6,337 nt of DNA from Candidatus Firestoneibacteriota bacterium (GTDB taxonomy: Bacteria > Oederibacteriota > D2-FULL-39-29 > JBDRBU01), in the NCBI GenBank assembly GCA_043822305.1, contig JBDRBU010000033.1, forward strand, positions 1 to 6,337, in the 5' to 3' direction. The notes beneath the pieces were generated by a model. It ran no database searches and had not been told where the DNA came from. It saw nothing but the letters and a program-made list of their open reading frames with translations. Below, in pieces: positions 542 through 5,935 of the stretch. Both the position numbers and the translations under genes were made by a program. Every line of letters starts with the position of its first letter. The first letter of the stretch is position 1.

Positions 542-1621
542 ATGAATATTAAAAAATCTGATACAGTAAATCCCGAACTCTCTTCCAAATTTCATAGCTT
601 GTTATTACAAAGCTGGAGACCAACCCTAAAAGAAATCCAAAAACAAAAAGCAATACCAATTGATGTTCGATTACGTAGAGAAGGAATTTATTATTATGAA
701 GAAATAATTCATCTCCAGCCAAAAGAATGGTTAATTAAAGAATTTGGTCCAGGACAAGATTATCCGGTCAATATCAGTAGACTTATGAAAAATATTATCT
801 GGCAAATCCGGACCAGGATTATTCAAAAACAACAACCACCTGTAAAAGGACTTATCCGATCCTTCTGGTATGCATACATCAAACCTGTCCTATCAAGAAC
901 AAATTCCCTAAACCAGAAGGTTGATCAATATCCACAAATGATTCAAATGTTTGCCAGGCTGGTCCAATATTTAGATCTTATGCGTTATAAAGATATCGGA
1001 TTCACAGACGATAATCAAAGCGATAGAAAAATAGGAATAAATAATCACATAATTTTATTTGCAGAAAAAGCCGGACATTATCCATTACTCCAGCAAATTG
1101 CAGAAAATTCCGAAGTAACTATTATCTCTTTAGGTGGACAACCTTCAATCCTTAGTGCAGAATATTTTGTTGATAAAATGAAAGCCCAGGGAATAGATAT
1201 CCGAAAATCATTTTATACCTTTAGCTTAGTAGATTATGATCCCAGTGGCTGGATTATAAAAAATGCATTCTTAAATGACCTCAATTTCTTCGGATTAAAA
1301 CATATAAAGCGTACAGATCTTATCCTATTGAAAATGTTCAGTAAAGAGGAAATAGAATCCAGTAAATACCTTGTTCCTGATCCTAAAGAAATGAAGATAA
1401 AAAACAGAAACTGGCTCAAAGAATCAGGAGGAATAAACGGTGAACTCTATGGACTTGAAGCTGATGCTGCCCCTTTAGAAAGAATAGAACAATTGTTTAA
1501 TTCATATATTCAGAATTTAATTGAATCAACGGAAGATATCAGAAAAGGAAGAGCTCTCTTTTCTGTAGCCCAATCCTTAGACGAATATGTTTTAGCCAGA
1601 TTAAGAACACAGGAGAAATAA
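542..1621 (+). CDS. Spo11/topoisomerase VI subunit A-like protein (winged helix with candidate catalytic Tyr + TOPRIM domain), 359 aa
   Basis: LIRSFWY (R106, Y110) resembles the RxxYY motif of Top6A/Spo11. IILFAEK (E175-K176), SLGGQPS (GxP), LVDYDPSG (DxD, D231/D233) and GLEADA (E306) follow the motif order of Top6A/JetD-like TOPRIM domains. Confidence 0.8.
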   Translation: MNIKKSDTVNPELSSKFHSLLLQSWRPTLKEIQKQKAIPIDVRLRREGIYYYEEIIHLQPKEWLIKEFGPGQDYPVNISRLMKNIIWQIRTRIIQKQQPPVKGLIRSFWYAYIKPVLSRTNSLNQKVDQYPQMIQMFARLVQYLDLMRYKDIGFTDDNQSDRKIGINNHIILFAEKAGHYPLLQQIAENSEVTIISLGGQPSILSAEYFVDKMKAQGIDIRKSFYTFSLVDYDPSGWIIKNAFLNDLNFFGLKHIKRTDLILLKMFSKEEIESSKYLVPDPKEMKIKNRNWLKESGGINGELYGLEADAAPLERIEQLFNSYIQNLIESTEDIRKGRALFSVAQSLDEYVLARLRTQEK

Positions 1622-1622
1622 T

Positions 1623-1985
1623 ATGTCAAATAATTCAGTATCTGTTACAAAACCATTTACACTTAATACATTCATGAAACAAACAACAAAACTTAAAATA
1701 ACCGCTGATGTGCTTGATGATTTTATAAAAGCCTTAGATGAATTAGTTATAAAAATAACTCAAACCTCTGAAGCCTTAGCAATAAAAGAAGATAGAAAAA
1801 CAATAATGCCTCAGGATTTAGAAAAAGCATTAAAAGAAACTTTAGAAAAAGGCCCCCTTACCGTAGATGAACTTACAAAAAAAATAGAACCATTAAGTAT
1901 AATTGAATTAACAGACTTGTCAGAGAAAATAAAGAAAATGGCAGAGGATCTTCTAAAACCAAAACAAGCAAAAAGAAAGAAATAA
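1623..1985 (+). CDS. Prokaryotic histone-fold protein with C-terminal helical extension and basic tail, 120 aa
   Basis: Short helix (TLNTFMKQ), loop KIT, long amphipathic helix (about aa 28-56), then RKTIMPQD (R58-K-T...D65), the RKTxxxxD signature of HMf-type histone folds, and helix LEKAL. SD AGGAGA at 1611-1616; ATG lies 1 nt after the upstream stop. Confidence 0.85.
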   Translation: MSNNSVSVTKPFTLNTFMKQTTKLKITADVLDDFIKALDELVIKITQTSEALAIKEDRKTIMPQDLEKALKETLEKGPLTVDELTKKIEPLSIIELTDLSEKIKKMAEDLLKPKQAKRKK

Positions 1986-2007
1986 ATCCAATTTGAATTT
2001 CTTATCT

Positions 2008-2040
2008 TATCCCCCTCTTATCTAAGAGGGGATAGGGGAG
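2008..2040. repeat. Short GC-rich palindromic element (REP/small-dispersed-repeat-like hairpin)
   Basis: CCCCTCTTA (2012-2020) / TAAGAGGGG (2023-2031) perfect 9-bp inverted repeat, extendable with TAT/ATA around a bulge, followed by ATAGGGGAG; no U-tract on the + strand. Confidence 0.55.
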
Positions 2041-2053
2041 TTATATAGCATAG

Positions 2054-2335
2054 ATGAACCACAAAGAATTAACCAAAAAAATATCTTTAAAATTTCATCT
2101 CCGACTTTATTTTTCAGAGCAACTCCTAAACCAAATCTATACCGAAATAACCCAAGAACTACTTAGAAAAAAAAGAGTCTATCTAAGAGCGCTTGGCACT
2201 TTTAATTCCCTTCACCGCCCCGCCAGACGATATTATGATCCAAAAACAAAAAAATTCAAAACCAGACCCGCTTACGATGATGTGATCTTCCGCCCAGCAA
2301 AACAACTTCTAAATAAATTTAGAATACATTTATAA
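2054..2335 (+). CDS. HU/IHF-family DNA-binding protein (divergent), 93 aa
   Basis: MNHKEL...IS start, RVYLRALGTF (cf. V.l.GFGTF), RPARRYYDPKT (cf. R.AR.GRNP.T), RPA...VIFRPAKQL (cf. IPA...P.F.PGK.L); length typical for the family. Confidence 0.9.
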   Translation: MNHKELTKKISLKFHLRLYFSEQLLNQIYTEITQELLRKKRVYLRALGTFNSLHRPARRYYDPKTKKFKTRPAYDDVIFRPAKQLLNKFRIHL

Positions 2336-3499: not shown

Positions 3500-3810
3500 A
3501 ATAGTAATTATTATCAATTTTTATTCTTTGTAGGTTTAACTCTACAAATTATAAAGAAAACTAAGAATTTAGAAAACCAATCTCCGCCCGCTACCATCCG
3601 CCTCATCCTCTGCCTGTTTCCTTTTATCTATTTTGTTTCATATCTCTTATTTCCCCCTTACCCATATTTTATCCTCTTCACTTCTCACGGCAGCCATTCG
3701 GCGTATGACAGCGAGCTGGGCGATGCACGTGAGACTCCCTCTTCGGCATCTCTAAACATCTATTAAATTATTATCACTGTCTCGGACAAGACATAATCTC
3801 CACCCGCCAA

Positions 3811-4055
3811 TCAGTAATCCGCAACAGTTTCCTACAATGTCCCGTGCCCTCCATTCAGTCGTTCCGTTTCGACAACTTATCACCACTTGCCATTTTATGG
3901 CAATTGGTTCGTGCTTGATGATAAAGGCAAGAAGCCTTTAACATCATTTTTCTTTTTGTGGGCTGCCTCAAAAAGAAAATCCGCACTGATAAATTGTCTC
4001 CACTACACTCCTATTTTTATTGATAGTTTTCTTTGTCTCGGTTGCGGATTACTGA
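3811..4055. repeat. Branched inverted-repeat domain I (non-coding)
   Basis: Closing 15-bp perfect IR TCAGTAATCCGCAAC 3811-3825 / 4041-4055. Inner stem 3871-3882 / 3987-3998 (one C-A mismatch) encloses hairpins 3887-3903, 3916-3946 and 3948-3979. Confidence 0.8.
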
Positions 4056-4079
4056 CCCCGCCCTACCACCCCTAAAGGT

Positions 4080-4384
4080 GTGAGCTTGTTTATATTATTT
4101 ATTTTAAGATGAAAAAGCTGCAAAGGAGAAATCACCCCCGACTAAATAAGTCGGGGTCGGGAGATGTCCGATAAGACCGGTCTTATCCGACATCCCCCTT
4201 GATTTCTCCCTTGCGACGTCAGAAAAACCAGCTTATCCTCGCCAAGAGACTCCGTCTCGCCAATGAGGTTTCACCTCGGCAGGAGACTCCGTCTCGGCAG
4301 AGTGATAAGCTGGTTTTTCTGATAAACATAAAAGTTTTTATGTTTACTTTTTCAAGAAAAAATAAATAATATAAACAAGCTCAC
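4080..4384. repeat. Branched inverted-repeat domain II (non-coding, cloverleaf-like)
   Basis: 26-bp perfect IR 4080-4105 / 4359-4384 plus 8-bp IR 4110-4117 / 4347-4354, enclosing three arms: 4120-4134 / 4200-4214 (sub-hairpins 4136-4156 and 4159-4198), 4219-4237 / 4304-4322 (19 bp perfect, three mini-hairpins inside) and 4323-4333 / 4336-4346. Confidence 0.9.
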
Positions 4385-4690
4385 TTACCTCCCACCCACC
4401 ACCCTTCAAGGGGTTCGCTCCAAATAGGAGCTCACAATCTTACTATGCATATAATTATCAAATCATCTCATCACCCCCTTTTACGCTTCGCAGTAGCTCC
4501 GCTTTTCGCCAGAGCCAAAGGCTCTGTCGTGAAAATCAAAAATGAAACTCTTGTCAGGACATAATTAGATTCAGGAGATAATACCATTACTCGACAATAA
4601 ATATGCTATTAAAACAAAACTGTAACCACATTTTTCCCTGCATCTTTCTCTAAATCACATACTTTCCCAAAATTATAGTTATTTTTTTCA

Positions 4691-4747
4691 TTGACAAAAT
4701 TAACTAATTTATATAGAATATCATCATAATCAGCAATTATATGATGA
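4691..4747 (+). promoter_or_regulatory. Sigma70-type promoter of the ATPase gene with downstream inverted repeat
   Basis: TTGACA 4691-4696, 17-nt spacer, TAGAAT 4714-4719. IR TCATCATA 4721-4728 / TATGATGA 4740-4747 spans the expected start site. SD GGAGG at 4781-4785. Confidence 0.7.
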
Positions 4748-4792
4748 CTTTGATTTATTTGATGAATAAATTTATAATCTGGAGGAATTAAA

Positions 4793-5935
4793 ATGAATCC
4801 ATTTACCCCCGGTCATACTGTTGATCCTCAGTTTTTTGCCGGCCGCAAAAAAGAAATAGAAAAATTTAAGATGTTTTTAAAAAATACCTGCCAGGGTAAT
4901 CCCATGAATATGGCTATCCTCGGTGAACGAGGTATAGGCAAATCTTCACTCTTGAGGACGTGTGAAAATCTTGCGAGGTCAGAACGATGTATTGTAGTGC
5001 GGGTGGACTTGGACGCAGCTATATCGACAATTAACGATCTGGTGATAACCATATTGCAAGAAATAAAACAAGAAGGCGGGGCTTATTCTAAGATCTTTAA
5101 GGCATCCGAAAAAGCAAAAAGATTTTTCGATACTTATAATATCTCTGCTGGGATTATGGGCGTTTCTTTAAGCCTGGATAGGCATAAACAGACTTTTTCT
5201 CATGAGGCGCGTTTAGAACTAAAGAAGGTTTGGAGGATAGTAAAAGAATACGTTCCGGCGATTGTAATTATGTTAGACGAAGCGGAACAACTTGAATATA
5301 TAGAAGGCTGCCTTCAATTCCTTAGAAATACTTTTTCTCGGATAACAGAAGAAAAAATGAACTTCATGTTGCTTTTATCAGGGAAGTTGAGCCTATTCCG
5401 TAAAATAAAAGAAATTCATTCACCTTTAGCCAGATTTTTTAATCCCGTCAGCCTATCTGAGTTGAATTCCGAGGAGAGCATTGAGGCTATCGAGAAACCC
5501 TTATCTTCTTCAAATTTTAAATTTACAGATGAAGTCAAAAACAAGATTGTTGAAGTAAGCCAAGGCCATCCTTATATCATACAACTTTTTGGATTCTATC
5601 TTTGCGAAAAGGCCACCTCTCAAATAATAAACGGGAATACCTATGAGGCATCCTTCCCCATGATTATGGACAGTCTATCAAAACAGCTCTTTGAAGATTA
5701 CTATCACTCCTCCAGTCCTCTGGAACAGAAGATACTAAGAGCTATTGCTGAAGAAAAGGAATCCGTCCTGGACTTCTCTTTAATAGTCAAAAAGGTCACA
5801 CAACCCCCTAATAAGGTATCCTATTTACTTAATCGTCTCTGCGAAAAGGATTGCCTAAAAAAGGTCTCCCGCGGTCATTACAGGCTTTTTCATAATTTGT
5901 TTAGGGAGTATTTGCGAGGTGAGGCGGATGCATAG
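4793..5935 (+). CDS. P-loop ATPase of the archaeal-ATPase/STAND-like type with C-terminal winged helix, 380 aa
   Basis: MNPFTPG...FAGRKKE N-terminus, Walker A GERGIGKS, Walker B IVIMLDEAE, GHPYIIQ (GxP motif), C-terminal wHTH-like segment (VSYLLNRLCEKDCLKKVSRGHYRL). Confidence 0.88.
   Translation: MNPFTPGHTVDPQFFAGRKKEIEKFKMFLKNTCQGNPMNMAILGERGIGKSSLLRTCENLARSERCIVVRVDLDAAISTINDLVITILQEIKQEGGAYSKIFKASEKAKRFFDTYNISAGIMGVSLSLDRHKQTFSHEARLELKKVWRIVKEYVPAIVIMLDEAEQLEYIEGCLQFLRNTFSRITEEKMNFMLLLSGKLSLFRKIKEIHSPLARFFNPVSLSELNSEESIEAIEKPLSSSNFKFTDEVKNKIVEVSQGHPYIIQLFGFYLCEKATSQIINGNTYEASFPMIMDSLSKQLFEDYYHSSSPLEQKILRAIAEEKESVLDFSLIVKKVTQPPNKVSYLLNRLCEKDCLKKVSRGHYRLFHNLFREYLRGEADA

Follow-up and report, generated by a model that had tools for sequence, protein, structure and literature searches.

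The attachment site attP(+) of CTXphi and RS1 is a folded single-stranded DNA (ssDNA) used by the XerC and XerD recombinases, as described for IMEX (PMC4246890, PMC5357621, PMC3442271). According to the available text of PMC4246890, it consists of contiguous inverted sites with centres of 12 and 5–7 nt, a layout that works only when folded. In the accessible parts of these sources, such use of folded ssDNA by XerC/XerD is established for CTX-like filamentous phages, with both boxes always on one stem. Chromosomal dif has an 11-6-11 layout (PMC2731167), and the available text of PMC12715192 lists full, left-armed and right-armed dif-like attP sites, with hairpin pairs not among them. Strand-specific branched folds are also found in the Frpo/ssi and sso elements of plasmids: in the portions available, Frpo candidates are defined by −35/−10 sequences in stems (PMC11541004) and the function of an sso can lie in its structure and not in its sequence (PMC4595007).

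Here we analysed a 6,337-nt stretch of DNA (hereafter the window), which is the whole of contig C33 in a genome of Candidatus Firestoneibacteriota (G000) and which is predicted to form a 305-nt cloverleaf. As in CTX attP(+), Xer-type boxes are rebuilt as stems in the predicted folded DNA of a mobile element, the C stem having one mismatch and the D stem two adjacent ones (the same numbers as stated for attP(+)), and the host has dif and XerC/XerD-like genes. Unlike CTX attP(+), the window carries its C–C′ and D′–D hairpins on separate stems of the 305-nt scaffold, it belongs to a RepA/ParA-type plasmid family and not to a filamentous phage, and no integrated copy was seen. Having no contiguous C-6/8-D site, it falls outside the CTX attP definition; it would work like attP(+), but its non-contiguous boxes keep it from being a member. 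Integron attC sites are tyrosine-recombinase substrates whose structure is kept while their sequence is mostly variable, with one strand favoured, and the window resembles them in these respects; unlike attC, its fold is branched, larger and provided with dif-like boxes, and neither an integron integrase nor a cassette array occurs in the window. It also differs from dif and from the plasmid cer, psi and pdif sites by the absence of a contiguous C-6-D arrangement, both of its sites being symmetric and set in a perfect fold. With chromosomal dif, as far as the available text describes it, the window shares 11-nt arms and an ATAA...TTAT inner core (PMC2731167). Finally, like Frpo/ssi and sso as presented in the available text (PMC11541004, PMC4595007), the locus is a strand-specific branched fold of the 250–350-nt class on a plasmid, but it has no −35/−10 pair in its stems and no rolling-circle Rep or relaxase was recognised.

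Our best explanation, to which we give a probability of about 0.45, is that the cloverleaf may be a folded ssDNA substrate for Xer-type recombinases, in the form of a split variant of CTX attP(+). No description of the split layout or of a related fold was found in the largely open-access literature searched.

A 305-nt cloverleaf within a larger structured region

The preliminary description of the window had pointed to a nested cloverleaf at 4080–4384, and most of its geometry holds. The 26-bp perfect inverted repeat (4080–4105/4359–4384), the 4 × 4 internal loop and the 8-bp stem (4110–4117/4347–4354) are all present, as are the 18-bp palindrome (4170–4187) and the duplicated 14-mer (4246–4259 and 4283–4296), and the statement that almost every base can pair translates into 254 of 305 nt (~83%) paired in the predicted minus-strand fold. 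Three arms do radiate from a four-way junction, but only arm 1 branches again in the minimum free energy (MFE) structure, where two arms had been said to do so; arm 2 folds as a single long, bulged hairpin, one 14-mer pairing with the other. Shuffling bears out that such a fold is not due to chance, with z-scores of −21.95 (RNA, plus strand), −20.13 (RNA, minus strand) and −22.14 (DNA, plus strand), and none of 100 shuffles folding as stably as 4080–4384 (MFE of −161.6 kcal/mol for the plus and −175.5 kcal/mol for the minus strand as RNA, −101 kcal/mol for the plus strand as DNA). At the scale of the 2.15-Mb genome, the 26-bp repeat is the longest among 419 perfect inverted repeats (at least 12 bp, seeds no more than 600 nt apart), and the segment 4220–4419 ranks first by folding energy among 564 non-coding windows. 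Misassembly is excluded, since a single contig from an environmental run spans 4025–4449 with 8 substitutions and 2 gaps. The copy-number check proposed earlier shows the cloverleaf to be single copy in the genome.

The earlier impression that no tRNA, tmRNA, RNase P, SRP or intron motif is present stands: the covariance models of Rfam 15 gave no match at E ≤ 1 over 3500–4800, and no tRNA or tmRNA was found on the contig. On five related loci, Rfam returned nothing meaningful, two weak chance matches aside. None of the four terminal loops of the cloverleaf is of the GNRA or UNCG type. A group I intron was considered and rejected: minus-strand words are reminiscent of Q, R and S elements, yet Q precedes the P-like strand and Rfam gives no match. 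A retron msr-msd was also rejected, with no reverse transcriptase family among the 9 ORFs scanned in the window, itself probably an incomplete contig.

The cloverleaf (domain A) is one domain of a structured non-coding region of ~960 nt (about 3580–4541), which also comprises domains B and C (Table 1). This larger region, the plasmid context and the Xer-type boxes had all escaped the preliminary description.

Table 1. Features of the window (positions in the window; a dot marks features listed without a strand)
Feature	Position	Strand	Basis
Domain A, cloverleaf: outer stem, four-way junction, three arms	4080..4384	-	Folding; wobbles favour minus strand; spanning relative
Outer stem, left arm: 26 bp perfect + 4-nt loop side + 8 bp	4080..4117	.	
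Outer stem, right arm; sequence differs in more distant relatives	4347..4384	.	
Arm 1, branched: hairpin 1a 4136-4156, hairpin 1b 4159-4198	4119..4215	.	
XerC-like box pair: 11-nt arm, 8-nt spacer, inverted 11-nt arm	4164..4193	.	
Arm 2: 19-20-bp perfect stem + bulged tip with duplicated 14-mer	4218..4323	.	
XerD-like box pair (arm 3): inverted 11-nt arm, 6-nt spacer, 11-nt arm	4321..4348	.	
Domain B: second branched fold, 15-17-bp closing stem	3809..4057	-	z -7.7/-7.9
Domain C: bulged stem, 71-nt purine-rich loop (minus strand)	3586..3716	-	
~70-nt hairpin repeat; three more copies on plasmid-like contig C15	4466..4536	+	
TopoVI-A-like ORF, histone, IHF/HU-like gene; region used to find sibling plasmids	542..2335	+	
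AAA/STAND ATPase	4793..5935	+	

The relative that spans the cloverleaf differs from it by 7 substitutions and 1 deletion within 4080–4384. Seven of these eight changes hit one or other of the 51 unpaired positions (P ~2.5e-5), and the remaining change mends a wobble, turning A.C into a G-C pair; this pattern indicates selection on pairing, the predicted fold being preserved in the relative. Three positions of the 4 × 4 loop have changed and the loop remains open. A second run carries six of the same substitutions over 4154–4363 and thus does not represent an independent lineage. Furthermore, 11 of the 13 wobble positions in the helices of domains A–C are G.T on the minus strand (P = 0.011), which argues for one folded strand, the minus strand folding better, and not for a symmetric cruciform. 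This bias and the loop-only changes fit a folded RNA and a folded DNA alike.

In four metagenome runs, relatives cover about 3580–4541, their ends being loose on either side. In another relative, domain B is present without domain A and the sequence past 4075 is unrelated, so that domain A is modular. Domain C is covered by many contigs in metagenome runs, and in one of these runs changes at 3613 and 3690 would be compensatory. Parts of domain B (3842–3888 and 3946–4011) are matched in one run by contigs of very high depth (up to 970 when summed) and occur as swapped hairpins in other relatives, and domain B may thus be more widespread than domain A. DNA searches with the cloverleaf region against relatives and the genomes of the order and phylum returned short A/T-rich matches only, and blastn against phages and plasmids gave nothing usable. 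Three flank motifs each had 0 matches in viral contigs, and one motif had 2 actinobacterial matches in genome contigs, judged to be chance.

Xer-type boxes in the window, its host and sibling plasmids

The host dif site lies between convergent genes on contig C95 (8632–8659, locus L057). It fits the 11-6-11 layout given in the available text of PMC2731167, and its core is identical in 8 of 12 genomes of the order, G000 included. Two full-length tyrosine recombinases of 288 and 296 aa (PF00589) are encoded in the genome, on contigs C108 and C119, their assignment to XerC and XerD being by size only. Compared with this host site, arm 3 of the cloverleaf is a D′-6-D hairpin whose arms are identical to the XerD arm at 10/11 and 8/11 positions, and the 18-bp palindrome forms the central part of a C-8-C′ hairpin whose arms are identical to the XerC arm at 6–7/11 positions. 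A single mismatch interrupts the stem of this XerC-like pair, at position 6; the C arm of a site on contig C15 has the same sequence as the right arm of the pair. In the predicted fold, the box stems are paired at 10/11 (C) and 9/11 (D) positions, and the start of the C loop fits the host dif centre only weakly, at 2 of its first 3 bases. The two hairpins lie 157 nt apart and, among 73 ATAA-spacer-TTAT hairpins in the genome, they form the only pair within 250 nt that has a D-type second member. A contiguous C-6/8-D duplex site (XerC arm, 6–8-bp centre, XerD arm) is absent from the window, the only near-case being an overlapping reading with 12-nt spacing at 4315. Taken together, the boxes make up less than a fifth of the cloverleaf, leaving the outer stem and arm 2 unaccounted for. 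No integration at dif was seen, the dif loci of the host and of 7 relatives (draft genomes) showing one clean site each in about 3 kb. Two further stems of the region (3871–3881/3988–3998 and 4232–4243/4298–4309) share the GATAA/TTATC core with the XerC-like box but lack a D arm.

The window bears a TopoVI-A-like ORF (a label resting on the available text of PMC11390915, with no Pfam match behind it), histone and IHF/HU-like genes, MazEF, a 157-aa ORF and an AAA ATPase, with the cloverleaf and domains B and C together in a 1.3-kb intergenic gap. A short hairpin between the histone and IHF-like genes (2006–2040) resembles a C-run/G-run palindrome found elsewhere in the genome. The contig is plasmid-like and probably incomplete, and no Rep was seen on it. 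With its 359-aa protein, 9 sibling loci were recovered from metagenomes, several of which encode a short Xer-like recombinase besides ParA and RepA-type initiators; one of them, L023, is circular, as its ends overlap. L018 and L025 are short loci, L020 is a shorter copy of the plasmid of L021, and L019 and L022 are mutually related. Xer-like recombinases of 188–207 aa are encoded by each of L019, L021, L022 and L023 (three of them verified by profile or BLAST). The non-coding regions of these four loci do not align to the window but are strongly structured (z of −4.4 to −10.9; sliding fold scan of L019, L021 and L023), and in L019 and L023 a similar ATPase directly follows the structured region, as it does in the window. 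A GC-rich word of 12–16 nt, not found in the window, is common to L019 (6145), L022 (12067), L023 (33) and L021 (6984) and is a candidate transfer-origin or protein site.

Within the host genome, the second plasmid-like contig C15 (L027) carries a RepA-like ORF, ParA, a serine resolvase and toxin-antitoxin pairs. It shares with the window the ~70-nt hairpin repeat (L027 4737–4798, 5520–5588 and 7876–7948), each copy of which stands upstream of a co-oriented gene, with a 3-nt loop inverted between copies. On another contig of the genome (C94, 14257–14880), a 207-aa Xer-like recombinase similar to the enzymes of the sibling plasmids was identified; this contig has a structured left end and, from its ORF starts only, seems rich in restriction-modification-like genes. 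Neither the PF03432 relaxase nor the PF02534 coupling protein, the two families searched, occurs in G000, and no relaxase was found among 12 proteins scanned from the circular L023. The TopoVI-A-like marker protein has no match in PLSDB and is restricted in the phylum to G000, being absent from the other 98 genomes; in viral contigs it gave 0 matches in one search and, in the other, 1 distant locus without a box hairpin. PLSDB matches to the recombinase and the ATPase are all distant.

The motif patterns were defined after viewing the window, and the siblings provide an independent check of about three lineages plus C15. In L019, L021, L022 and L023, the XerD-arm pattern yields only one inverted pair, located inside the structured non-coding region, and it is absent from L020, L024, L025 and L026. 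L019 and L022 have a separate C hairpin upstream of the D pair, which is the same split pair in the same order as in the window; in L019, the pairing pattern of the window is matched exactly and the outer five bases are the same. More distant relatives keep both D arms, with a 5-nt spacer, a different neighbouring arm and a changed outer stem (loose ends). L021, L023 and C15 show the CTX layout itself, that is, two inverted contiguous C-D sites, with centres of 6/7, 6/7 and 10/6 nt, respectively. The C15 site (8099–8229) is an inverted dif-like pair with the XerC arms outermost, and the predicted folds of L023 (114–199) and L021 (7068–7155) are CTX-type attP-like structures on RepA/ParA plasmids in which no relaxase was recognised; each of these folds is followed by a similar T-rich stem base.

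Beyond plasmids, a smaller split cloverleaf was found in two mutually related phage contigs (L033 and L040). In phages, no general link between C and D hairpins was found: a D hairpin within 300 nt of a C-type pair occurs in 0 of 34 viral contig loci, and a C hairpin beside a D-type pair in 1 of 66 distinct phage loci by a strict rule (80 loci minus 14 duplicates) and in 2 by a looser one. Across the phylum, the D-pair pattern is at control level (4 other genomes versus 5 control matches). A symmetric XerC-like pair of 11-nt arms with a 5–9-nt spacer stands alone in 34 viral loci (L058–L091), many of them outside long ORFs, and is possibly a common phage recombination or operator site. The C-stem mismatch at position 6 is shared by the window, L019, L022, L023 and C15 and shifts to position 7 in L021; its conservation, entertained as proof of folded recognition, was downgraded to weak evidence because position 6 is simply variable in phage sites.

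Weighing the explanations of the fold

The preliminary description had proposed a structured non-coding RNA, a folded ssDNA element such as a recombination substrate, or a MITE-like element. The second of these is best supported, by the recurrence of XerC-like and XerD-like hairpins in the corresponding region of sibling plasmids, the RNA is less likely and the MITE-like element is not sustained. The long (26-bp) terminal inverted repeat and the many small palindromic repeats of the genome might evoke a MITE, or an accumulation of nested REP-like hairpins without a function of its own, but this view is largely refuted and very improbable: the cloverleaf is single copy, its flanks prolong the stem instead of forming a target-site duplication, of 7 arm probes, only 2 short ones have a fuzzy match elsewhere in G000, one each, and the changes in the relative avoid the stems. 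A nested REP/BIME cluster was also rejected, the arms not belonging to genome-wide repeat families. The cloverleaf could otherwise be one domain of a non-coding RNA of ~800–960 nt produced off the minus strand, a putative transcript in keeping with the one-sided G.U-type wobbles, the loop-only variation, the possibly compensatory pair of domain C, the purine-rich minus strand and the modular domains. We consider it improbable, as Rfam has no match in the window or the five related loci beyond the two chance ones, the minus strand lacks both an upstream promoter-like site and a terminator-like site at the 3′ end, the cloverleaf has no GNRA or UNCG loop, and the only motifs shared with siblings here resemble DNA-recombinase boxes. 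Perfect helices of 20–26 bp are typical RNase III substrates, which also counts against an RNA.

Unlikely, although the least so of these rivals, is a role as part of a single-strand origin, promoter or priming region (sso, ssi or Frpo-like) that would convert plasmid ssDNA, either incoming or lagging, to duplex, with the Xer-like boxes as passengers. The plasmid context and the strand-specific branched fold agree with what is expected of an sso, and the structured slot of ~1 kb holds its position between plasmids while its sequence is unalignable; against this, the best −35/−10 match in stems reaches 9/12 on either strand, the initiators of the siblings are RepA-type with no recognised rolling-circle ones, and the siblings have no AT-rich outer stem. 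As improbable as the RNA is the proposal that the box pairs are symmetric duplex sites, for multimer resolution or as the operator of a homodimeric recombinase, perhaps with histone/IHF-like accessories, in a region having another job, e.g. a transfer origin. Stand-alone symmetric C-type and D-type pairs are indeed common in phage contigs, each sibling has a single Xer-like enzyme, and the D pair of the window has a canonical 6-nt centre. However, homologous D pairs have spacers of 5, 6 and 8, which fits stem recognition better than recognition of a fixed duplex, each box is precisely one stem of the fold, and the layout of L021, L023 and C15 works only when folded, according to the available text of PMC4246890. 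The reading as a folded Xer substrate has its own difficulties: no dif-integrated copy and no source of ssDNA were found, lone palindromes exist in phages, and most of the fold is unaccounted for.

A putative split Xer substrate and its implications

Under the preferred reading of a folded ssDNA Xer substrate, we infer a single-stranded phase, Xer binding, a loop-to-loop geometry and strand exchange. The site of a small plasmid would present XerC-like and XerD-like boxes as two hairpins, serving as a docking or strand-exchange substrate. Its minus strand would fold when single-stranded, on the lagging-strand template, during DNA uptake or transfer, or by extrusion from supercoiled DNA. XerC-type and XerD-type proteins, either those of the host or the ~205-aa Xer-like enzyme of the sibling plasmids, would then bind the two stems, the branched scaffold keeping the loops together so as to mimic one dif site. 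As in CTX attP(+), the plasmid would be joined to a dif-like partner by one strand exchange, placed where stem and loop of the C hairpin meet, and the D hairpin would act structurally during this exchange.

A bolder and unlikely proposal, though less so than the rivals above, is that the locus represents a new class of Xer substrate, a "split dif", in which half-sites would stand as separate loop-capped hairpins on a branched ssDNA scaffold and would be interchangeable with a contiguous CTX-type attP within one family of relaxase-less small plasmids. If so, cutting after each inner ATAA followed by hairpin-hairpin exchange would leave a dif-like site of 11-6-11 layout and free the ~157 nt in between in circular form, and the split and contiguous layouts could then be two states of one device.

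These readings, if true, would have several implications. Boxes sitting on separate hairpins would mean that Xer enzymes accept a geometry without description in the literature searched, and the natural pairs of split and contiguous sites in this plasmid family permit a direct comparison with oligonucleotides. In addition, small plasmids without a recognised relaxase would be able to dock at dif, or resolve single-stranded intermediates, in this way. More broadly, the hijacking of Xer recombinases through folded ssDNA would extend from cholera-type phages to plasmids of uncultured groundwater bacteria.
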